Below are positions 6,430 to 58,627 of a DNA stretch of 64,000 nt, piece after piece. The DNA comes from Clostridia bacterium (GTDB lineage Bacteria; Bacillota; Clostridia; Oscillospirales; CAG-272). A program made the translations under genes and the position numbers. Numbering within the stretch: the first letter of the stretch is position 1; each line of letters begins with the position of its first letter. The notes under the pieces are model-generated. The model was given only the letters and a program-made list of their open reading frames with translations, was not told where the DNA came from and searched no databases. The stretch spans positions 3,342-67,341 of the forward strand of contig JAFUMU010000083.1 in assembly GCA_017482495.1 (NCBI GenBank). The letters are read 5' to 3'.

Positions 6430-6436
6430 TTAGTAA

Positions 6437-6495
6437 TGCAGGGAGGCTTTTTAAGGAAAAGCCCCCTGCACCCCCAAAACCTTTTCGGATAAAAT
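6437..6495 (+). repeat. Solo L module of the intergenic repeat family
   Basis: TGCAGGGAGGCTTTTTAAGGAAAAGCCCCCTGCA hairpin followed by CCCCCAAAACCTTTTCGGATAA. Same as the left ends of the copies at 27045, 37101 and 43748. Confidence 0.75.
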
Positions 6496-6575
6496 CCGTG
6501 GGTCCGCATAATGCACAGCCAAAGTATATGGCACAGAGCTGCGTCAAGCAGTATGAAAAAAGTATTTGCACCGGG

Positions 6576-6604
6576 TTGACCAAATCAATAACATATGGTA
6601 TAAT
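6576..6604 (+). promoter_or_regulatory. Sigma-A type promoter
   Basis: TTGACC (6576-6581), 17 bp spacer, TATAAT (6599-6604). Confidence 0.7.
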
Positions 6605-6610
6605 ATTACG

Positions 6611-6682
6611 ACTGAACAGGCAGCGGCAAGTCCGCGAAGCCGGGTCTTACAAGACAACAGATACGCATCTGTGGGACAGTAC
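6611..6682 (+). promoter_or_regulatory. NiCo (czcD-type) riboswitch aptamer
   Basis: ACUGAACAGGCA..GAAGCCGGGUC..GACAACAGAU..AUCUGUGGGACAGU matches my recollection of the conserved NiCo junction nucleotides. P1 is ACUG/CAGU and three hairpins lie inside. It sits upstream of a CDF transporter. Confidence 0.7.
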
Positions 6683-6726: not shown

Positions 6727-7842
6727 TTGAAAAAAGAGATAAACAGATCGAAAATAGGGCAGATATCCGGAATAATCGGAATAATATGCAACTGCGTTCT
6801 TTCTGCAACCAAAATATTCGCAGGAGCCGTTTCAGGTTCCCTGTCAGTTACAGCAGACGGATTAAACAATCTCAGCGATGCCGCAAGCTCCGTCGTCGCC
6901 TTTCTCGGTTACAGGCTGTCCGAAAAGCCCGCAGACAAGAAGCATCCCTTCGGACACGCAAGAATAGAGTATCTTGCCAATCTGACGGTTGCAACCCTTA
7001 TGCTTTTTATGGGATTTGAGCTTACGAAATCATCCGTTATAAAAATGATCTCCACCGAAAAAGCCTCATTTTCCGTCCTCACCTTCATCATCCTTGCCAT
7101 ATCCATAGCAGTAAAGATATTTATGATGCTGTTCAACAGGCATATGGGCAAAAAGATATCTTCAGCTACACTTATGGCGGTTGCCGCAGACAGCAGAAAC
7201 GATGCCATAGCAACAACCGTTGTTGCCCTTTCAGCCGCAACCGAATATTTTTTCAACATCAAAGTCGACGGTATAGCAGGACTTCTTCTGGCATTATTCA
7301 TACTTTACAGCGGAATAATCACGGCCAAGGGCGCCGTCTCCACTCTTTTGGGCGAGGGCGGGTCGCCGAAGCTGAAAAACGAAATAACAGCTCTTATCCT
7401 CTCAAACAATGATATCATAGGATGCCACGACCTTATAGTACACGACTACGGGCCCGAAAAAATATACGCCAGCATCCACGTTGAGATGAACAAAAACGCC
7501 ACTCCTATGTACAGCCACAGAATAATCGATCTTCTTGAGAGGAAATGTCTTAAGCGCCTCGGTGTGCATCTGGTCATCCACCACGATCCCGTTGCAACCG
7601 ACGATCCGGGGGAAAATCAGATCCGACAAGCAATAGAAGATTTTTTATCGGAAAGAGACCCTCGGCTAAAATTCCACGATCTTCGCATAGTTGAGCGAAA
7701 TACCGCAACTCTTCTCTATTTCGACATAGAGATCCCCGAAGAAATCTTCGGTGAGCGGCACAGCATTGCTCTTGAGCTTGAATCACATCTGAACGAAAGC
7801 CTCAGCCGCCGCTTCATACTGAATATTACCTACGACATTTAA
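6727..7842 (+). CDS. Cation diffusion facilitator (CDF) family metal exporter
   Basis: TTG start 6 nt after GGGAGG. Contains SLSVTADGLNNLSDAASS and KKHPFGHARIEYL motifs, six TM helices and a cytoplasmic C-terminal domain. Confidence 0.9.
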   Translation: MKKEINRSKIGQISGIIGIICNCVLSATKIFAGAVSGSLSVTADGLNNLSDAASSVVAFLGYRLSEKPADKKHPFGHARIEYLANLTVATLMLFMGFELTKSSVIKMISTEKASFSVLTFIILAISIAVKIFMMLFNRHMGKKISSATLMAVAADSRNDAIATTVVALSAATEYFFNIKVDGIAGLLLALFILYSGIITAKGAVSTLLGEGGSPKLKNEITALILSNNDIIGCHDLIVHDYGPEKIYASIHVEMNKNATPMYSHRIIDLLERKCLKRLGVHLVIHHDPVATDDPGENQIRQAIEDFLSERDPRLKFHDLRIVERNTATLLYFDIEIPEEIFGERHSIALELESHLNESLSRRFILNITYDI

Positions 7843-13161: not shown

Positions 13162-14304
13162 ATGACTAAGATAGATATTTTCTCAGGCTTTCTCGGAGCA
13201 GGCAAGACCACTCTTATAAAGAAGCTTATTTCCGAAGCATACAAGGGCGAAAAGCTTGTTCTTATTGAAAACGAATTTGGTGAGATCGGCGTTGACGCAG
13301 GATTTCTTACCGACGCAGGTATCAACATCACAGAAATGAACTCAGGATGTATATGCTGCTCTCTTGTGGGAGACTTCAGTCAGGCACTTAAAAAGGTCAT
13401 AGCAGAATATGCTCCCGACAGGATCCTCATCGAACCCTCCGGAGTCGGCAAGCTTTCCGACGTTATGGCGGCTGTTAAGGGTAGCGCAGAGGGTGCGGAG
13501 CTTTCTGCGGCGGTAACAGTTGTTGACGCTAAAAAATGCAGAATGTATATGAAGAATTTCGGTGAATTTTTCAACAATCAGGTTGAAAATGCAACCACCA
13601 TCGTCCTCAGCCATACCAAGGGACTTTCAGAGGATAAGCTGAACCGTGCAATAGAAATGATCAGAGAGCACAATGCAAAGGCAAGCCTTGTTACAACTGA
13701 GTGGGACGAAATAAGCGGCGCTGATATTCTATCTGTTATTGACGGCACAGATTCCCTTGAAGCAGAGCTTCACAAGCTGGAGGAGGAGGCTGTTTGTCCC
13801 GAATGCGGTCACCATCACGGCCCTCATCATCACCACGATGAAAGCTGCGACTGTCACGAGCATCATCACGACCATCACCATCACGATGAGGGCTGCGACT
13901 GTCATGAGCATCATCACGACCATCACCACCACGATGAGGGCTGCGACTGTCATGAGCATGAACATCATCACCATCATCATGACGAAGAATGCTCCTGCGG
14001 ATGCGGCGGTCACGGTCACCATCATCACCATGCAGACGAGGTGTTCTCAAGCTGGGGAATGGACGGCACACGCAAGTATACAAAAGAAGAGATCGAAAAA
14101 GCTCTTCACGAGATAGAAAACGAAGAAAAATACGGTATGGTTCTCAGAGCTAAGGGGATAGTTCCCTCCGACGGCTGCTTTATCCACTTCGACTATACCC
14201 CCGGCGAAGCAGATATAAGAGAGGGCAGTGCAGTTGCCGCAGGCAGACTTTGCGTTATCGGCTCAAATATCAAGGAAGATGCTCTGAGAGAGCTCTTTGC
14301 ATAA
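13162..14304 (+). CDS. COG0523 (CobW/HypB/UreG, G3E) GTPase metallochaperone with His/Cys-rich insert
   Basis: Walker A GFLGAGKTT, CxCC motif GCICCS and an EPSGVG switch. Carries a long HHHH/CDCHEHHH insert before the CobW C-terminal domain. Confidence 0.9.
   Translation: MTKIDIFSGFLGAGKTTLIKKLISEAYKGEKLVLIENEFGEIGVDAGFLTDAGINITEMNSGCICCSLVGDFSQALKKVIAEYAPDRILIEPSGVGKLSDVMAAVKGSAEGAELSAAVTVVDAKKCRMYMKNFGEFFNNQVENATTIVLSHTKGLSEDKLNRAIEMIREHNAKASLVTTEWDEISGADILSVIDGTDSLEAELHKLEEEAVCPECGHHHGPHHHHDESCDCHEHHHDHHHHDEGCDCHEHHHDHHHHDEGCDCHEHEHHHHHHDEECSCGCGGHGHHHHHADEVFSSWGMDGTRKYTKEEIEKALHEIENEEKYGMVLRAKGIVPSDGCFIHFDYTPGEADIREGSAVAAGRLCVIGSNIKEDALRELFA
13837..13980 (+). repeat. In-frame 48-bp tandem repeat (3 units) coding DE[SG]CDCHEH[HE]H[DH]HHHH
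   Basis: Three consecutive near-identical 48-nt units are visible in the DNA and the protein. A fourth, degenerate unit (DEECSCGCGGHGHHHHH) follows. Confidence 0.85.
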
Positions 14305-15237: not shown

Positions 15238-15246
15238 TAAGCATAT

Positions 15247-15274
15247 AAAAACGGACGCCGCGGCGTCCGTTTTT
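15247..15274. terminator. Bidirectional intrinsic terminator
   Basis: AAAA-ACGGACGCCG/CGGCGTCCGT-TTTT perfect palindrome between convergent genes. Confidence 0.8.
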
Positions 15275-17382: not shown

Positions 17383-18150
17383 ATGAACAAGGCTACTCGT
17401 AAGGCTATTATTGCCGGCAACTGGAAAATGAACATGACTCCCTCCGAGGCAGCAGCTGCAGTTAAGAAGACAGCTGAGCTCGTAGCAGGTAAGGACGGCT
17501 GTGAGATCGTTCTCTGCGTTCCCTTCGTTGATATCGCAGCAGCAGTTGAGGCTGCTAAGGGTACTAACGTTAAGATCGGTGCTCAGAACGTTCACTTTGA
17601 GGCTAAGGGCGCTTTCACAGGCGAGATCTCCGCAGCTATGCTCGTAGAGTGCGGCGTTGAGTACGTTGTAATCGGTCACTCCGAGAGAAGACAGTACTTC
17701 GGCGAAACAGACGAAACAGTTAACAAGAGAACTAAGGCTGCTCTCGCTGCAGGTCTTAAGGTTCTTCTTTGCCTCGGTGAGGTTAAGGAGGAGAGACTCG
17801 CAGGTATCACAGATGAGGTTGTTTCTATCCAGACTAAGCTTGACCTTGCAGGCATCAGCGCTGAGGATATGAAGAACGTTATCATCGCATACGAACCCGT
17901 TTGGGCTATCGGTACAGGTCTTACAGCTACTCCCGAGCAGGCTGATGAAACTTGCGGCGTTATTCGTGCAACGATCGCAAAGCTTTATGGCACAGAGGTT
18001 GCAGAGGCTACAACTATCCAGTACGGCGGTTCTATGAACGATGCTAACGCAGCAGAGCTTCTCTCCAAGTATAACGTTGACGGCGGTCTTATCGGCGGCG
18101 CTTCTCTCGTTCCCGAAAAGTTCGACGCTATCGTTACTGCTGCTAACTAA
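17383..18150 (+). CDS. tpiA: Triosephosphate isomerase
   Basis: Contains AGNWKMN, IGHSERR and AYEPVWAIGTG motifs. Confidence 0.95.
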   Translation: MNKATRKAIIAGNWKMNMTPSEAAAAVKKTAELVAGKDGCEIVLCVPFVDIAAAVEAAKGTNVKIGAQNVHFEAKGAFTGEISAAMLVECGVEYVVIGHSERRQYFGETDETVNKRTKAALAAGLKVLLCLGEVKEERLAGITDEVVSIQTKLDLAGISAEDMKNVIIAYEPVWAIGTGLTATPEQADETCGVIRATIAKLYGTEVAEATTIQYGGSMNDANAAELLSKYNVDGGLIGGASLVPEKFDAIVTAAN

Positions 18151-18177
18151 GCTTTAGAATTTGATATGTGTTATTTT

Positions 18178-18676
18178 AAGGGGGGACCTCTCTTTCGGAG
18201 AGCGGTCCCCCTTTTTTTATATGGGGGAACCTCTCTTTCGCAGAGAGGCTTCCCCCAAGCCCCCTCCAGAGAACCTATAACAAGGGTAAATGTTATTAGG
18301 TGCGCTGTATTTCGCGCATTCCCGCCGAGAGCTTTTTCGGTGGAACCTCTCTTTCGCAGAGAGGCTTCCCCCGTACCCCCTCCAGAGAACTTTGAATAAA
18401 GGTGAACGTAATATGATGCGCTGAACGAACGCGTCTTCCCGCCCCAATGCTGTGCATTGGGGATAAGGAAAAGAAAAGGATATTGAAAAAGGAAGCTCGT
18501 TTCCTTTTTCAATATTCTTTTGCTTTTCCGGGCGACCTGCGGTCGCTTACGGGAAGACTAACCTAACTTACGGTGCTCAGAATCCCATTTAGCCTTAGAA
18601 CATCGTAACCACCAAAATAAGCGTTATCTTAAAAGGTTTGGGGGCGTGGGGGCCTTTCCTTAAAAGGCGCCCCACA
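18178..18676 (-). repeat. Intergenic modular repeat, inverted orientation, with duplicated R module
   Basis: Reverse complement of the 27045 and 37101 copies. On the + strand it reads three GGGGGA.CTCTCTTTCG.AGAGAG..CCCCC hairpins, two R modules, the core (GTCTTCCCG...CGGGAAGAC) and the L hairpin at 18645-18675. Confidence 0.85.
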
Positions 18677-18689
18677 TATCCTCTTCCCC

Positions 18690-19193
18690 TCACATATCGA
18701 TCACCAAGGTGTGGCCGTCGGAGAAGCTAAGCTCTATTTTAACGGGAGTACCGTCGGAATCGGTAATGACCTTGCCGGAGAGATCGGGGGATATGACGGT
18801 AGCCTCGGTGAGTCCGTTATCAGCGGCAACGATATCGGAGATCATATCCTCTGAAAGGGAGAATGCCGACTCGATCTTTTTAACGATGCCTGCGGTTTTT
18901 TCACCGAAGGGTATCTCAACATCGCCCATTTTCCCCTTGTATGTACCGCCACTTTTTTCAAGAATATAACCACCGATTATGGAAGGGGAGATGTATTCAA
19001 CGGAAACTGTTTCACGCACACCGTTTTCGTCGGGTGCACTGAGGGTAATTTTAGCTTCATTTTCATTTCCGTCGTACACGAGGACGCAATCGAAGCAAAA
19101 ATCACTGTTCTGATAGTCAAAAAAATTGGTATGTGTAACATCACATGACACCATAAATATAACACACAAAAGGCACAGCACGATCTTACGCAT
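18690..19193 (-). CDS. Lipoprotein, unknown function
   Basis: Trimmed to the ATG after GGGAGGAAAT. MRKIVLCLLCVIFMVSC gives a signal peptide plus lipobox. Confidence 0.6.
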   Translation of the reverse strand: MRKIVLCLLCVIFMVSCDVTHTNFFDYQNSDFCFDCVLVYDGNENEAKITLSAPDENGVRETVSVEYISPSIIGGYILEKSGGTYKGKMGDVEIPFGEKTAGIVKKIESAFSLSEDMISDIVAADNGLTEATVISPDLSGKVITDSDGTPVKIELSFSDGHTLVIDM

Positions 19194-19252
19194 ATTTCCT
19201 CCCAAAAAAGCAAAGCGCACATATTTCTAAATGAAATATATGCGCCGTTTTT

Positions 19253-27012: not shown

Positions 27013-27037
27013 GGGGACTTTTAGTAAGTCCCCTTTT
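27013..27037 (+). terminator. Intrinsic terminator
   Basis: GGGGACTTTTAGTAAGTCCCC followed by a T-run. Confidence 0.7.
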
Positions 27038-27044
27038 GTTTTTT

Positions 27045-27380
27045 GCGGAGGACCTTTTAAGGAAAGGTCCCCCTCGCCCCTCCAAACCTTTTAGTGAAAC
27101 GCTTATTTTGGTGCCTGTGATATTATTCAGCTAAATGGGATTCGGAGCAGATTGCTGTATAAGTCTTCCCGTATGCGACCGCAGGTCGCCGGGAAAAGCA
27201 AAAGGATATAAAAAAAGGAAACGAGCTTCCTTTTTTTATATCCTTTTCTTTTCCTAATCCCAAATGCACAGCATTTGGGCGGGAAGACGCGACATTCAGC
27301 GCATCATATTACATTCACCCTTATTCAAAGTTCTCTGGGGGAGCACGAGGGGGACTCTCTCCGAAAGAGAGTCCCCCTCG
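27045..27380 (+). repeat. Intergenic modular repeat, single-unit copy (L - core - R)
   Basis: L hairpin 27045-27077. Closing helix GTCTTCCCG (27163-27171) / CGGGAAGAC (27280-27288) encloses three hairpins. R module ends with hairpin 27346-27380. Confidence 0.85.
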
Positions 27381-27404
27381 TAAATCATAAAATTCTAAAC
27401 CAAA

Positions 27405-36078: not shown

Positions 36079-36097
36079 ACCATTGTAGCTACAAAAT

Positions 36098-36190
36098 TCA
36101 ATACAGGGGTGCTGTTACAGGACGGCTGAGACGGAAATTTTCCGAACCCTTTAACCTGATACGGGTAATTCCGGCGTAGGGAGCATTGTT
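36098..36190 (+). promoter_or_regulatory. TPP (THI-box) riboswitch
   Basis: CAGGGGUGC...GGCUGAGA...ACCCUUUAACCUGAUACGGGUAAUUCCGGCGUAGGGAGC matches the TPP aptamer consensus. Confidence 0.9.
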
Positions 36191-36223
36191 TTAAGGCACT
36201 ATTATATTATTTTGCTTTTTACT

Positions 36224-36251
36224 ACACCCTGCCGAGAGCAGGGTGTTTTTT
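36224..36251 (+). terminator. Riboswitch terminator
   Basis: ACACCCTGC-CGAGA-GCAGGGTGT followed by a T-run. Confidence 0.8.
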
Positions 36252-36291
36252 GCTCTTATATTTCGGAAACGAAAGGAGTAATTATTTTAAA

Positions 36292-37086
36292 ATGAAAAAA
36301 AATTTAGCACTTAAACTTACGGAAAGCGCAATGATGATCGCGCTGGCTACCATTCTCAGCTTTATCAAGCTGGCAAATCTGCCTTACGGCGGCAGTATAA
36401 CTATCGCATCTATGCTGCCAATACTTATTATCGCCGTTCGCTACGGCACACCGTGGGGTCTTTTCACAGGACTTGTCCACGGAACCCTGCAGCTTATAAT
36501 TGATCCCGGACCTCTCAGCTACTTCTCTGACGGGCTGAGCGTTGCGGCAATAATTGTGCTTGACTATATTCTCGCCTTCAGCCTTATAGGCTTAGGAGGA
36601 CTTGCCGGAAAAGCCAAAGCTCCCACTGTTTCACTTAGCATAGGAGCACTTATCGCAGGTGTGCTTCGCTATCTGTGTCACGTGGTATCAGGTGCAACAG
36701 TTTGGGCGGGACTCTCTATTCCCACCTCCGCCGCACTTGCTTATTCCTTCGTCTACAATGCAACATATATGCTTCCCGAAACACTTATCCTCATTATATC
36801 AGCATATTTTATCGCTTCATCTGTGAACTTCCGTTCTCAGCGCCTCGCTCCTGCAAAGCGCGGCGATAAAAAGGTCTCCGTTTTCTCTGTTTTAGGATTG
36901 GCATTTTTCTCCGGCGGACTTATCTTTGACATTGCTTCAGTATTCTCTAAGCTGCAAAACGGAGAAACAGGTGAGTTCGATATCACAGGCATCGCTTCTG
37001 TTAACTGGATCCTCGTTCTTGCTGTAACCGCTGTCTGCTTCGCCCTCGGTGCAGTTATGCTCCTTGTGGCAAAGAGGAAGAAATAA
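36292..37086 (+). CDS. thiT: ECF-type thiamine transporter S component ThiT with C-terminal extension
   Basis: Trimmed to MKKNLALKLTESAMMIALATILSF. Has a ThiT-like six-TM core downstream of the TPP riboswitch and about 80 extra C-terminal residues with two further hydrophobic helices. Confidence 0.7.
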   Translation: MKKNLALKLTESAMMIALATILSFIKLANLPYGGSITIASMLPILIIAVRYGTPWGLFTGLVHGTLQLIIDPGPLSYFSDGLSVAAIIVLDYILAFSLIGLGGLAGKAKAPTVSLSIGALIAGVLRYLCHVVSGATVWAGLSIPTSAALAYSFVYNATYMLPETLILIISAYFIASSVNFRSQRLAPAKRGDKKVSVFSVLGLAFFSGGLIFDIASVFSKLQNGETGEFDITGIASVNWILVLAVTAVCFALGAVMLLVAKRKK

Positions 37087-37100
37087 TTTGAGGATTTTAT

Positions 37101-37608
37101 GCAAGGGGGATTTTAAGGAAATCCCCCCTGCACCCCCAAACCTTTTCGGATAACGCATGATTTGGTGGCTACGATATTCTATATCTAAACGGGATTCGGA
37201 GCAGTATAAGGTAGGTTAGTCTTCCCGTATGCGACCGTAGGTCGCTCGGAAAATTAAAAGGATATTGAAAAAGGAAACAAGCTTCCTTTTTCAATATCCT
37301 TTTCTTTTCCTTAACCCAAATGCAATAGCATTTGGGCGGGAAGACGCGCCCGTTCAGCGCACAATATTACATTCACCCCTATTCAAAGTTCTCTGGAAAG
37401 GGGTACGGGGGAGAACCTCTCTGCGAAAGAGAGGTTTCCCCCGAAAAAGCTTCGTGCGGGAATGCGCGAAATTCAGCGCACCTTATAAAGTTCACCCTTA
37501 TTCAAAGTTCTCTGAAAGGGGCGGCCGGGGTTCCCCAATGCGAGCTTGCCGAGCCTTGGGGGTTCACGGTACGGGGGAATCTCTCTCCGAAAGAGAGATT
37601 CCCCCCGC
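37101..37608 (+). repeat. Intergenic modular repeat, copy with duplicated R module
   Basis: L hairpin 37101-37131. Closing helix 37219-37227 / 37337-37345. First R module ends with hairpin 37407-37442; second R module ends with hairpin 37573-37607. Confidence 0.85.
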
Positions 37609-37624
37609 ATTAATTCACACATAA

Positions 37625-40025: not shown

Positions 40026-40227
40026 AGCGAAGACTGTATATCATAAAACGTGAATCTGCGGCAAGCCGCAGTGAAATTTGGGCTATCGCTCAAGTGAAGT
40101 ATTGCACCTGCGATGCAATATGAAGTTAATGTTCCAACTATCGTGCCGAAGGCATATATAATCGCTCGCAGAACGATATCATATCGAAGATATATCACCC
40201 GTTCCGCAGGGAACGGGTATCATTGAA

Positions 40228-40260: not shown

Positions 40261-40351
40261 TGGCGGAGAAGGAGAGATTCGAACTCTCGAACCCTTTTAC
40301 AGGTTACACGATTTCCAATCGTGCGCGCTCGACCAGCTACGCGACTTCTCC
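40261..40351 (-). tRNA. tRNA-Ser (anticodon GGA), CCA encoded
   Basis: Minus strand reads GGAGAAG..CACGA-UUGGAAA-UCGUG..long variable arm..GAGAG-UUCGAAU-CUCUC-CUUCUCC-G-CCA. The cloverleaf was folded by hand. Confidence 0.9.
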
Positions 40352-43725: not shown

Positions 43726-43747
43726 TAGAATAGGAATAATAAAGAAA

Positions 43748-44057
43748 GGGGGCTTTTAAGAAAAGCCCCCCCTGCCTCATGAATATACATCGACTACATT
43801 ATCGTTCAACTAAAATGAATTTCGAAGTATTAGCCGTGTTAGTCCTCCCTGCAAATCCCCTGAATAATCCGGATAATTAAAAGGAGATGGATGTAAAAAC
43901 GGAAGCTTATTTCCGTTTTTACATCCATCTCCTTTTACATTGCCGCTTTGTGGCACATGAGAAGGCGCAAGGTTCTGCGCACATATATTATTACCTTCAT
44001 TTCAGGTTCTCTGAAGGGGGCTCGTGGAGAACTCTCTGCGAAAGAGAGTTCTCCACG
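43748..44057 (+). repeat. Divergent copy of the intergenic modular repeat
   Basis: Same order of elements: L hairpin GGGGGCTTTTAAGAAAAGCCCCC, long central hairpin, GCGCA/TGCGC hairpin, TTCAGGTTCTCTGAAGGGGG, and terminal hairpin 44023-44057. Stem sequences are largely different. Confidence 0.7.
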
Positions 44058-44072
44058 AAATAACTAACCTAA

Positions 44073-45485
44073 TCAACCGTTGATCTTCTCATGTATAGCC
44101 TTTGCCGCAGTTTTACCTGCACCCATTGCGAGTATAACAGTAGCGGCACCTGTAACAGCATCGCCGCCTGCGTAAACCCCGTCACGTGATGTGAGTCCGG
44201 TTTCTTCTTCAACAATGATACCACCGCGACGGTTAACATCAAGACCGTCCGTAGTGTCCTTGATAAGAGGATTGGGACTCGTACCGATAGACATGATAAC
44301 ACAGTCAACATCCAGTACAAACTCACTGCCTTCCTTAACGATAGGACTGCGGCGACCGCCCTCATCAGGCTCGCCAAGCTCCATTTCCACGCATTCCATT
44401 CCGCAAACGAAGCCATTCATGGGATCGCGCTTGTCTTCTTCGTTACGGTAGCCAAGTATTTTTGTCGGATTGGTAAGGAGCTTGAACTCGATACCCTCCT
44501 CCATGGCATGCTCTACCTCCTCGCGTCTTGCGGGAAGCTCGTCAAGAGAACGGCGATATACAATGTATACCTTGTCCGCACCGAGACGGAGAGCAGTTCT
44601 TGCAGCATCCATAGCAACGTTACCGCCGCCCACAACTGCAACCTTTTTCGCCTTCATAATAGGTGTTGCGCTGCCGTCTCTGTATGCCTTCATAAGATTG
44701 CTTCTTGTGAGGAATTCGTTTGCTGAGTAAACACCCTTAAGACTCTCGCCGGGAATACCCATAAATCTGGGCAGACCTGCGCCGCTGCCTACAAACACCG
44801 CCTCATAGCCTTCCTCAAAAAGCTCATCGATGGTCAGTGTCTTACCTATTATAATATTTGTCTTTATATCAACTCCGAGAGCGCGGAGAGTTTCCACTTC
44901 CTTTGCAACGATAGCCTTGGGAAGACGAAACTCGGGAATTCCGTACACAAGCACGCCTCCTGCTGTGTGAAGCGCCTCAAAAACAGTAACACTGTATCCA
45001 AGCTTTGCAAGGTCGCCTGCACAGGTAAGCCCTGAAGGACCGCTTCCTACCACTGCAACCTTGTGACCGTTAGCTTCGGGCTTAACAGGTGCTTCTGCGC
45101 AATATGTATTGTGCCAGTCGGCAACAAATCTCTCAAGTCTGCCTATACCTACAGGCTCGCCCTTGATACCTCTGATACATTTAGATTCGCACTGGGTTTC
45201 CTGAGGGCACACTCTTCCGCAAACTGCAGGAAGAGAGGACGACTGATTGATTATCTGATATGCACCCTCAAAATCTCCTTCCTTTACCTTTGAAATAAAT
45301 TCGGGAATATGGATCTTGACCGGGCATCCGTCCACACAAAGAGGCTTTTTGCAATTGAGACAGCGCGCCGCTTCGTCAAGAGCTGTCGCCTCGTCATATC
45401 CTGTTGCCACCTCGTCGAAGCAGGAAGCTCTCAGCTTTGCATCAAGCGTGGGCATAGGATTCTTAGTATTCTTCATATTTGCCAT
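44073..45485 (-). CDS. nfnB: NADPH-dependent oxidoreductase, glutamate synthase small-chain-like (NfnB type)
   Basis: Trimmed to MANMKNTK. Has two 4Fe-4S Cys motifs and GSGPSGL and GGGNVAMD dinucleotide folds. Paired with an NfnA-like gene. Confidence 0.8.
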   Translation of the reverse strand: MANMKNTKNPMPTLDAKLRASCFDEVATGYDEATALDEAARCLNCKKPLCVDGCPVKIHIPEFISKVKEGDFEGAYQIINQSSSLPAVCGRVCPQETQCESKCIRGIKGEPVGIGRLERFVADWHNTYCAEAPVKPEANGHKVAVVGSGPSGLTCAGDLAKLGYSVTVFEALHTAGGVLVYGIPEFRLPKAIVAKEVETLRALGVDIKTNIIIGKTLTIDELFEEGYEAVFVGSGAGLPRFMGIPGESLKGVYSANEFLTRSNLMKAYRDGSATPIMKAKKVAVVGGGNVAMDAARTALRLGADKVYIVYRRSLDELPARREEVEHAMEEGIEFKLLTNPTKILGYRNEEDKRDPMNGFVCGMECVEMELGEPDEGGRRSPIVKEGSEFVLDVDCVIMSIGTSPNPLIKDTTDGLDVNRRGGIIVEEETGLTSRDGVYAGGDAVTGAATVILAMGAGKTAAKAIHEKING

Positions 45486-47926: not shown

Positions 47927-47941
47927 TTAATTACGTTTTTT

Positions 47942-48087
47942 GCAGGGAACCTATTAAGTATAGGTTTCCTGTCCTCAAACCTTTTGGTATAGGTGTCTTG
48001 TTGGTGTTTGCAGACATTGCTAAAAAGGTCAGAGAGACAGAGAACATAAGGTGGGGGAATCGCTCTTTTGCAGAGCGGTTCCCCCAC
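47942..48087 (+). repeat. Short form of the intergenic repeat (L module + terminal hairpin)
   Basis: GGGAACCTATTAAGTATAGGTTTCC followed by CTCAAACCTTTTGG. Ends with GTGGGGGAATCGCTCTTTTGCAGAGCGGTTCCCCCAC. Confidence 0.6.
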
Positions 48088-48101
48088 TAAATATATACAT
48101 G

Positions 48102-57651: not shown

Positions 57652-58588
57652 CGCTGTTACAGCAGACTATAAATTGACAGTTGCCTCTGACAAAGCAGGT
57701 ACGCGCCTTGATAGCTTTATTGCAGAGCATACGCCCCTGAGCCGCAGTGCGGCACAGGGGCTTCTTCCGGAAAACAAAATAACAGTTAACGGTAAATGCG
57801 TGTCAAAAAGCTGTAAGCTGAAGGCAGGAGATATCATCGAGGTATTTCTCCCCGAAGCTGAATTGTGTGAAGCAGTGCCCGAGGATATCCCCCTTGATAT
57901 CGTCTACGAGGACGATGATGTGGTGGTGATAAATAAGCCTCAGGGAATGGTTGTCCATCCCGCACCGGGACATGAAAGAGGTACACTTGTAAATGCTGTC
58001 ATGTTCCACTGCAAGGACAGCCTCTCTGATATTAACGGAGTTATCCGTCCCGGTATCGTCCATAGGATAGATCGTGACACAAGCGGACTTCTTATCGTTG
58101 CAAAAAATAACGAGGCACACCTTGCCCTTGCCGCTCAGCTTGAGGACCATTCTCTTTCCAGAGTTTACAAAACTATCCTCTGCGGAAGACTCAAGGGAGA
58201 CGGAACTGTGGACGCTCCCATCGGACGCCATAAAACTGACAGAAAGAAAATGGCAATATCCCCCGACGGCAGACGCGCCGTCACTCACTATAAGCAGATT
58301 TGCGAGCTGGAGGGAGGCTTTTGCCTGGCGGAAATGCGTCTTGAAACAGGAAGGACCCATCAGATAAGAGTCCATATGGCACATATAGGCCACCCGGTTC
58401 TTGGCGACCCTGTGTACGGAAGACCTACCCAGTTTGAAAAAAAGCATCCGTCTCTCTTTATGGGGCAATGCCTGCACGCAGGCGAGCTTACCTTTCGCCA
58501 TCCCCGCGACGGCAGAGAGGTCACGGTCACAGCTCCCTTGCCTGAAAATTTCAAGAGAATACTGACCTTGCTTGGTTATGAGCAATAA
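57644..58588 (+). CDS. rluD: RluA-family 23S rRNA pseudouridine synthase
   Basis: S4 domain followed by HRIDRDTSGLLIVAK and GRTHQIRVH. Confidence 0.9.
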   Translation: MNNAVTADYKLTVASDKAGTRLDSFIAEHTPLSRSAAQGLLPENKITVNGKCVSKSCKLKAGDIIEVFLPEAELCEAVPEDIPLDIVYEDDDVVVINKPQGMVVHPAPGHERGTLVNAVMFHCKDSLSDINGVIRPGIVHRIDRDTSGLLIVAKNNEAHLALAAQLEDHSLSRVYKTILCGRLKGDGTVDAPIGRHKTDRKKMAISPDGRRAVTHYKQICELEGGFCLAEMRLETGRTHQIRVHMAHIGHPVLGDPVYGRPTQFEKKHPSLFMGQCLHAGELTFRHPRDGREVTVTAPLPENFKRILTLLGYEQ

Positions 58589-58626
58589 AAAATGCAGTAT
58601 CACGTTTTGTGATACTGCATTTTTTA
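58587..58626. terminator. Bidirectional intrinsic terminator
   Basis: AAAAAATGCAGTATCAC-GTTTTGT-GATACTGCATTTTTT. Confidence 0.8.
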
Positions 58627-58627
58627 T

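Follow-up and report, generated by a model that had tools for sequence, protein, structure and literature searches.

A composite multi-hairpin repeat between convergent genes of a Clostridia bacterium

Interspersed repeats such as REPs (repetitive extragenic palindromes), BIMEs (bacterial interspersed mosaic elements) and BOX elements are well studied in Proteobacteria and streptococci and hardly described in the uncultured Clostridia predominating in animal guts. BOX, RUP and SPRITE are over-represented between convergent genes, SPRITE being possibly a co-opted terminator (PMC3049150); REPs are situated mainly downstream of genes, between unidirectional and convergent open reading frames (ORFs) (PMC3733652), and one REP was described as both a terminator and an mRNA stabiliser (bioRxiv 10.64898/2026.03.23.713779). 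Here we consider a sequence of ~500 nt at positions 18178-18676 of a 64 000-nt stretch of contig JAFUMU010000083.1 (an uncultured gut Clostridia bacterium, Oscillospiraceae/Ruminococcus-like; assembly GCA_017482495.1); the whole stretch is called ‘the window’ below. On balance, we read this sequence as belonging to a species-specific family of composite interspersed repeats, non-coding and REP/BIME/BOX-like in kind, located in gaps between convergent genes and probably acting as a bidirectional terminator and 3′-protecting cassette.

The family is represented in the window by four full copies (A, B, C and D, named here for the copies at 18178, 27045, 37101 and 43735) and two partial ones (E at 6430 and F at 47935). 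Copy A fills the 539-nt gap between tpiA and the gene at 18690-19220. A preliminary description, made from the letters alone, had presented copy A as the reverse complement of the copies at 27045 and 37101; the inverted-repeat search bore this out, aligning 18453-18672 with 37105-37324 (83% over 220 nt) and 18430-18559 with 27162-27291 (92% over 130 nt). In the multiple alignment, copies A, B and C have an identical order of modules. The core of one of their hairpins, CTCTCTSCGAAAGAGAG, occurs eight times in the window if at most two mismatches are allowed, versus 0.02 occurrences expected from shuffled sequences.

Read in the orientation of copy B, the parts follow in the order H1, a C-rich echo with CCAAACCTTTT, an interior of ~100 nt, GTCTTCCCG, H2, H3, H4, R and H5. 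H1 is a hairpin with loop TTTTAAGGAAA; the C-rich echo repeats its 3′ arm, and CCAAACCTTTT comes next. In the same orientation H2 is GCGACCGCAGGTCGC, H4 is formed by CCCAAATGC...GCATTTGGG and H5 is GGGGGA-CTCTCTSCGAAAGAGAG-TCCCCC, while the AT-rich hairpin H3 has 20-28 bp and is flanked by T tracts on each side. The R module opens with CGGGAAGAC and closes with TTCAAAGTTCTCTG and a G-rich echo. Thus, the terminal modules H1 and H5 are mutually inverted, and inward of each one finds a C- or G-rich echo and a motif of the CAAAC(C)TTT type; the core H2-H3-H4 is clamped by GTCTTCCCG/CGGGAAGAC, with one or two R+H5 units beyond it. The predicted fold pairs the C echo with the G echo, and in it H2-H4 form a three-way junction held together by GUCUUCCCG/CGGGAAGAC; the 9-nt inverted repeat CGGGAAGAC/GTCTTCCCG was likewise read in copy B. 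Another scheme, with the left arm and the inverted right arm as homologues, was rejected: apart from H1 versus H5, the local alignment of the arms was no better than the best shuffle, and we therefore describe the element as nested inverted repeats. The H1 stems differ in every copy (GTGGGGCGCC, GCGGAGGACC, GCAAGGGGGA and others); the loop and the tail are constant.

Folding of the whole element is predicted to be extreme, with z-scores of -11.0 for copy B and -12.7 for copy A on the element’s forward strand. The forward and reverse strands fold equally, the energies being -231/-226, -153/-159, -241/-239 and -131/-137 kcal/mol. Strand asymmetry (G.U versus A.C pairs) was sought as a sign of a single transcribed strand; none was seen, with G.U counts equal on both strands.

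Copies were found at five of the ~10 convergent junctions (A, B, C, D and F), and these five are all the convergent gaps of at least 175 nt; the other junctions, ~45 in number, contain a single partial module (copy E, in a co-oriented gap; Fisher p=4e-4), and no divergent gap in the window contains a copy. In every copy the distance from the stop codon of the co-oriented gene to the start of H1 is ~10-45 nt, and H5 is turned towards the opposing gene. The earlier suggestion that the element can function or insert whichever way it lies relative to its flanking genes is not supported by this uniformity: copy A stands in the same relation to its neighbours as the other copies do and, as A, B, C, D and F are all located between convergent genes, the inverted orientation of A carries no information on orientation independence. 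The convergent junctions without the repeat have plain bidirectional terminators of the A-tract/hairpin/T-tract type, e.g. at 15246-15273 and 58583-58627; the design of H3 matches these simple terminators.

Two hairpins of the element have features of terminators. The hairpin next to tpiA (hairpin 1; 18178-18218, + strand; 16 bp, -26.7 kcal/mol, z -3.6) belongs to the terminal H5 type, has a CCGAAAG loop on the element’s own strand and is followed by seven Ts; it matches the terminal hairpins of copies B and C by 81-84%. With its U7 tract, 28 nt past the tpiA stop (18150), it has the textbook features of an intrinsic terminator, and is probably the terminator of tpiA, as had been proposed. H3, with a stem of 20 bp or more and T-rich tails, was called terminator-like on both strands in copies A, B and C; by these features it looks like a bidirectional terminator at the centre of the element. 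A promoter-like site was found inside none of these three copies.

These observations could be combined in the following scheme. A transcript coming from either side would meet a strong GC hairpin first, and then the central AT-rich H3 with T tracts on both strands; hairpin 1 with U7 would stop tpiA transcripts, H3 would stop transcripts arriving from both directions, and the GC hairpins would block exonucleases and so protect the 3′ ends. The element itself would be maintained as a set of DNA palindromes and would persist in convergent gaps as harmless there and probably helpful. Copies may change when family members recombine and when whole hairpin modules are gained or lost. The repeat probably sets transcript ends of housekeeping genes: tpiA, thrS and the gene of H+-pyrophosphatase.

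The remaining parts of copy A are read on the - strand, with the exception of H3. Hairpin 2 (18223-18256; -26.1 kcal/mol, z -4.7) and hairpin 3 (18340-18372; -19.6 kcal/mol, z -3.5), both H5 hairpins of the GCGAAAG type, close the outer and the inner R units, respectively. Three near-identical hairpins had been reported just after the tpiA stop. The three hairpins are real; at 83% and 74% identity they are related rather than near-identical, and while the first two lie within ~110 nt of the stop, the third starts 190 nt away. The outer R module (18257-18339) is of the R2 subtype, GGGAATGCGCGAAAT...GGTTCTCTGGAGGGGG; the inner one (18373-18441), of the R1 subtype, ends in CGGGAAGAC, which pairs in the predicted folds with GTCTTCCCG of the left arm. 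Next come H4 (18442-18462; CCCCAATGC...GCATTGGGG, with an equivalent inverted repeat in copy B), H3 (18467-18529; up to 28 bp, terminator-like on both strands with -34.4 and -30.4 kcal/mol, z -6.4 and -7.7), H2 (18530-18558; GCGACCGCAGGTCGC with flanks GTCTTCCCG...CGGGAA, conserved in A, B, C and in contig L133 discussed below) and the interior of the left arm (18559-18630; GGATAACGC...CTAAATGGGATTC.GAGCA..., as read from alignments). The H1 module (18631-18676) consists of the hairpin 18646-18675 with loop TTTTAAGGAAA (-26.7 kcal/mol) and of the C-rich echo with CCAAACCTTTT at 18631-18645; it begins 14 nt past the stop codon of the co-oriented gene 18690-19220.

Of the two genes reading into copy A, tpiA (triose-phosphate isomerase; 17383-18150, + strand; PF00121 on record for an identical protein) enters at the H5 end and the gene at 18690-19220 (- strand) at the H1 end. 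The latter, a 167-aa gene call in L001/L002, is of unknown function, and its product had no Pfam match. Exact-protein look-ups for two flanking genes returned no match.

The other copies are all on the + strand. Copy B (27037-27395; one R) lies between an HD-domain gene (+) and the H+-pyrophosphatase gene (-). Copy C (37095-37620; R1 and R2) is located between a thiamine-transporter gene (+) and a DUF4867 gene (-); the former gene, 36250-37086, is preceded by a TPP (thiamine pyrophosphate) riboswitch at 36095-36199 (+), and copy C follows its stop codon. Copy D (43735-44075), a diverged full copy with one R, is situated between thrS (+) and an oxidoreductase gene (-). Copy F (47935-48100) is a short form, in which H1-like and H5-like hairpins are ~60 nt apart between convergent flanking genes. 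Copy E (6430-6500) is the H1 module, i.e. the 5′ module, alone; it is located 3′ of a methionine gamma-lyase gene and directly upstream of a NiCo riboswitch (6603-6681, +), which in turn precedes a cation-efflux gene (6727-7842).

Two ORFs, 18171-18512 (-; 113 aa) and 37265-37624 (+; 119 aa), lie entirely within repeats and have no Pfam match; no ORF internal to the repeats matched a family. Both are likely to be false genes, as reported for large BOX elements.

Number of R+H5 units varies from one (B and D) to two (A and C). In copy A, the R module with its hairpin is present twice, as had been noticed earlier, at 18223-18307 and 18339-18423 (82% identical, or 79% over 101 nt). The picture of a modular, multi-copy element stood as well; on the other hand, the variation in R number could not be attributed to modular expansion within a locus. 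Identity is 90-91% among three of the modules, namely the inner R of A, the single R of B and the first R of C; between the inner and the outer R of A it drops to 79%. The outer R of A is 82% identical to the second R of C, with which it forms a distinct subtype, GGGAATGCGCGAAAT; these two show 79-85% identity to the inner Rs. Furthermore, the terminal hairpin has a CCGAAAG loop and the internal one a GCGAAAG loop in both A and C. As both Rs of copy A have their nearest counterparts at other loci, the two-R form appears to be an older variant copied whole; judged by these identities, the long form with R1 and R2 is an inherited architecture common to A and C rather than a recent local duplication.

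Comparison of strains gave another view of the same variability. The region of copy A is 100% identical in two metagenome contigs carrying the same TpiA, and the same repeat sequence was found in independent assemblies from several samples; the organism is present in samples ERZ28654512, ERZ28654221 and ERZ27256817. Different behaviour was seen at the locus of copy B. In contig L133 the flanks are 99.1% identical over 2466 nt, and the upstream terminator and the H1 stem are kept; however, an extra H1-like hairpin unit of 38 nt, bounded by a duplicated TTTTGTTTTTTGCGG, is present before the H1 of copy B (2505-2545 of L133), and the interior of the element is 78% identical to B and 80% to C. This divergence indicates an exchange with other family members, or replacement. 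An identical arrangement in all relatives would have spoken against the preliminary description; the strong difference of L133 at the 27045 locus shows otherwise, and such a difference between near-identical strains makes the repeat a possible strain marker.

Comparison of the regions downstream of tpiA in relatives, proposed earlier, was limited to sequence immediately 3′ of tpiA and showed that the relatives nearest by TpiA (amino-acid identity of 96, 87 and 85%) carry ordinary, canonical terminators of their own, with no family modules (H5, R) in the 38-290 nt readable past the gene. Among 185,579 species genomes the best TpiA match was 84%, to gut or rumen metagenome-assembled genomes (Eubacteriales, Oscillospiraceae or Ruminococcus); nearby named relatives include Candidatus Avispirillum. 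Past tpiA of the closest relative (L129, 2090-2285) we saw a different family of hairpin repeats with constant tail CTACCGCGCGT and varying stems (GGGAGGAGC/GCCCCTCCC, GGAACGGTC/GACCGTTCC); similar units are present in L011 (4330-4440). Repeats with a variable stem and a fixed tail may be a general habit of this clade.

Several contigs, a 65-kb scaffold among them, end inside or just before repeats: L134, L133 (locus B), L141 (locus C) and L129-L131 (past tpiA of the relatives). This is expected for a high-copy family. The family is dense here; it systematically interrupts metagenome assemblies at gene ends, and it gives rise to false ORFs.

Among the collections searched, no species but this one had the full composite. 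Exact-pattern scans for R+H5 had zero matches in viral contigs and in the 185,579 species genomes, a collection that lacks this species; blastn against plasmids and phages gave no match; in an nhmmer search with copies A-D, 1.1 Mb of loci from related genomes and the metagenome loci yielded only contigs of the same species and similarity at the level of the H1 module. The Rfam search with two copies, both at gathering score and at E<=10, yielded only spurious sub-threshold matches of miRNA type on H3. A literature search for these motifs, or for such repeats in Ruminococcaceae or Clostridia, returned nothing relevant.

The terminal module, on the other hand, has a wider distribution. A variable stem with loop TTTTAAGGAAA, a pyrimidine echo and CCAAACCTTTT recur past stop codons in many gut and rumen metagenome contigs. 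The scan pattern, H1 loop plus tail, both fixed, was found at 45 loci, 26 of them with a real hairpin around the loop, and in ~18 of these 26 cases the hairpin starts 5-37 nt past the stop codon of a long co-oriented ORF; loop AAGG and tail CCTT, a candidate pseudoknot pairing, are both invariant in the collected set. Stand-alone H1 modules between co-oriented genes were seen in L096 and L100, and also as copy E. Elements with H1 at one end and R/H5 at the other, having different interiors, were found in L011 and L093, the one in L093 being located between convergent genes; in L014, a 414-nt element with terminal inverted repeats of ~58 nt (78-91%) comes directly after tpiA. The H1...R/H5 layout faces gene ends in L011, L093 and L014 as well.

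In 20 distinct sequences, the positions of the H1 stem are paired in 89.6% of cases versus 67% in shuffles, with the inner pairs partly selected for by the scan pattern; 10 of the 13 pairs vary at both positions, and a single G.U occurs among 260 cells (L084-L127 and the window). Such covariation, restricted to Watson-Crick pairs, points to H1 palindromes maintained either at the DNA level or on both strands.

How does this family compare with the repeats mentioned at the outset? Closest in build are the BOX elements of S. pneumoniae, boxA-boxB(n)-boxC, and the BOX-like elements of S. suis: they are also composite, non-coding and a few hundred nt long, with an internal module in one or more copies; their ends pair in a tight fold; they are enriched between convergent genes, have no transposase of their own, and their large copies produce spurious ORFs on both strands (PMC3049150). 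The analogy with BOX, drawn already in the preliminary description, was therefore sustained by the composite structure, the variable number of internal modules, the pairing ends and the enrichment between convergent genes (PMC3049150). The resemblance claimed is one of build, and the host belongs to a different order. Besides, here each end is a strong hairpin with a copy-specific stem, a terminator-like bidirectional hairpin occupies the centre, and the R+H5 units are of two old subtypes, whereas the boxB units of BOX are tandem and near-identical.

REPs, BIMEs and REPINs have in common with our family the inverted GC-rich palindromic units combined with other conserved motifs into a mosaic, in clusters that gain and lose units (PMC3733652, PMC3116915), as well as the location 3′ of genes, between convergent or co-oriented ORFs, with a proposed role as terminators or stabilisers of mRNA 3′ ends (PMC3733652, PMC3116915, bioRxiv 10.64898/2026.03.23.713779). 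Inverted pairs of REPs are able to form a larger hairpin; similarly, H1 and H5 are inverted here, and the echoes and GTCTTCCCG/CGGGAAGAC pair. Unlike REPs, however, which are imperfect palindromes of 20-40 nt with a conserved sequence, the elements are 340-530 nt long with a long conserved interior, in the terminal hairpin module the loop and tail alone are conserved and not the stem, and G.T pairs, frequent in REP stems (PMC3733652), are nearly absent from the H1 stems. As to SPRITE, a long-stem terminator-like repeat near the 3′ ends of convergent coding sequences (PMC3049150), H3 and hairpin 1 are alike; SPRITE is a single hairpin with a U-rich tract, whereas here the terminator-like hairpins sit within a multi-hairpin element. 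In sequence, the family is unrelated to Rfam or to the searched collections; it has neither the REP head nor the target-site duplication of a MITE (miniature inverted-repeat transposable element), and works like BOX, BIME and SPRITE.

Several observations weigh against the interpretation of the family as a REP/BIME/BOX-like terminator and 3′-protecting cassette. At copy B, the interval from the upstream gene to H1 already contains a separate canonical terminator, and for this reason the element is not needed for termination there. H1, as well as H5 in copies B and C as read, has no adjacent U tract. The conserved GTAG/CGTC head of REPs is absent from the H1 stems, which have no common tetranucleotide head, and neither a RAYT (REP-associated tyrosine transposase, an IS200/IS605-like TnpA) nor any other mobilising enzyme was present among the window ORFs scanned or on record. 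No clean empty site was seen at the orthologous junction among the relatives fetched; with synteny to the downstream gene absent in all of them, none could be demonstrated. Finally, genome-wide copy number is extrapolated from 64 kb, and we infer termination and stabilisation from sequence alone.

Prokaryotic MITEs, such as Correia/NEMIS, RUP and bcr1, are small, non-coding, multi-copy and intergenic and have inverted ends. One could therefore suppose that the repeat is a classical MITE with terminal inverted repeats used in trans by the transposase of a full-length insertion sequence (IS) elsewhere in the genome. The size below 600 nt, the many copies, the 414-nt element of L014 with its clear terminal inverted repeats, the ends conserved across lineages with different interiors and the strain-level difference at locus B would all fit. 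Still, we consider this rather unlikely: no target-site duplication flanks A, B, C, D or the element of L014; the two ends of the window family are hairpins of different types with exact inverted repeats of only 9-10 nt; stems vary between copies within one genome, which would be odd for a protein-binding terminal repeat; none of the ~44 window ORFs scanned or on record encodes a transposase, and the window has no full-length IS with the same ends, nor any other cognate IS; and viral contigs, plasmids, phages and species genomes have no related sequence. Another explanation involving mobility takes H1 as a resident REP-like or terminator-like site, beside whose CCAAACCTTTT the interior with R and H5 inserts site-specifically; copy E and the lone H1 modules of L096 and L100 would then be empty sites. 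In agreement with it, the H1 stem is identical in the window and L133 with ~22% divergence from the linker after its 3′ arm onward, and interiors are lineage-specific with H1 loop and tail in common. Nevertheless, the polymorphic locus is a single one and is accounted for just as well by a crossover between copies within the conserved CCAAACCTTTT; the far end is an inverted module of the same design, suggesting that both ends belong to one unit, and no candidate integrase or transposase was found. We hold such insertion to be quite improbable.

Alternatively, the selected product may be an RNA, either a small RNA (independent or derived from a 3′ untranslated region, UTR) or a cis-acting 3′UTR structure, with the repeats being paralogous RNA genes. 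An ordered multi-helix fold with z of -11 to -12.7 and many compensatory changes in the H1 and H3 stems are what one would see in a structured RNA; also, H1 is probably transcribed as a 3′UTR, given the start at 5-37 nt past a co-oriented stop in ~18 of 26 cases. Yet the equal folding and equal G.U counts of the two strands, the near absence of G.U from the covarying H1 stem and the lack of a promoter-like site in copies A, B and C are hard to reconcile with an RNA family; in addition, modules are gained, lost and truncated (E, F, L133), the element is not kept at the same locus in the nearest relatives, and Rfam has no relative of it. The RNA explanation is thus very unlikely in our view; like the MITE and the insertion beside H1, it falls short in at least one of our tests. 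As for chance similarity, local duplication or assembly artefact, one may recall that the organism is of metagenome type, and contigs break at repeats; with copies at six loci having different flanks and the excess of core matches over shuffles, and as independent assemblies from several samples carry the identical sequence, this possibility is already refuted and has next to no probability left.

Two more candidates were tried and rejected. Domain V of a group II intron was considered, H2 with its 3-nt bulge being slightly similar by eye; there is no AGC triad, and Rfam gave no intron match. An integron attC-like site did not fit either: the core RYYYAAC/GTTRRRY is unmatched and, by inspection, the flanking genes are housekeeping ones.

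A separate question concerns the relation between the stem of the terminal module and its tail. The pyrimidine tail mirrors the 3′ arm, as the parallel complement of the 5′ arm, with a score of 88 versus 68.4 +/- 3.95 in permutations (0/5000 as high), low-complexity runs of G and C inflating the similarity and the sample being drawn with fixed loop and tail. Reading the tail as a direct repeat gives 80 versus 67.5 +/- 3.6; the mirror reading is somewhat better. Examples of stem and tail are GGGGAAA/CCCCTT, GAGAA/CTCT, GGGAGGGG/CCCTCCC and AAAGGGGG/TCCCC; in L014 the mirror repeat matches at 13/14 positions, AAGAAGTTTCCCCC-ACA-CCCCTTTCAAGAA. The succession of purine arm, loop, pyrimidine arm, linker and mirror-pyrimidine segment is the strand order of an intramolecular pyrimidine-motif triplex. 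One could speculate that the terminal module is an undescribed, widespread 3′-end element of gut and rumen Clostridia: either a hairpin capped by a triplex or pseudoknot and blocking exonucleases, or a site for a single-strand recombinase. The coupling of stem and tail, the mirror repeat of L014, the Watson-Crick covariation of the stems and the place just past stop codons would speak for it. We regard this speculation as a fairly unlikely one; the mirrors of H5 and L014 extend into mixed sequence, unable to form a pyrimidine-motif triplex. Were the recombinase site real, the composite elements would be a Firmicute counterpart of REPINs; a real stem-coupled tail would add a structural device of a new kind to the ends of bacterial transcripts or DNA.

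Elsewhere in the window, a match to Gut-1 RNA (51.1 versus the gathering score of 50 bits) and an adjoining tRNA gene occupy 40151-40225 (-) and 40264-40351 (-), in a 1-kb gap with small helix-turn-helix ORFs nearby. Within a cobW-like metallochaperone gene (13162-14304), the coding sequence at 13800-13991 (+) consists of tandem repeats with a period of 48 nt and many codons for His, Asp and Cys.

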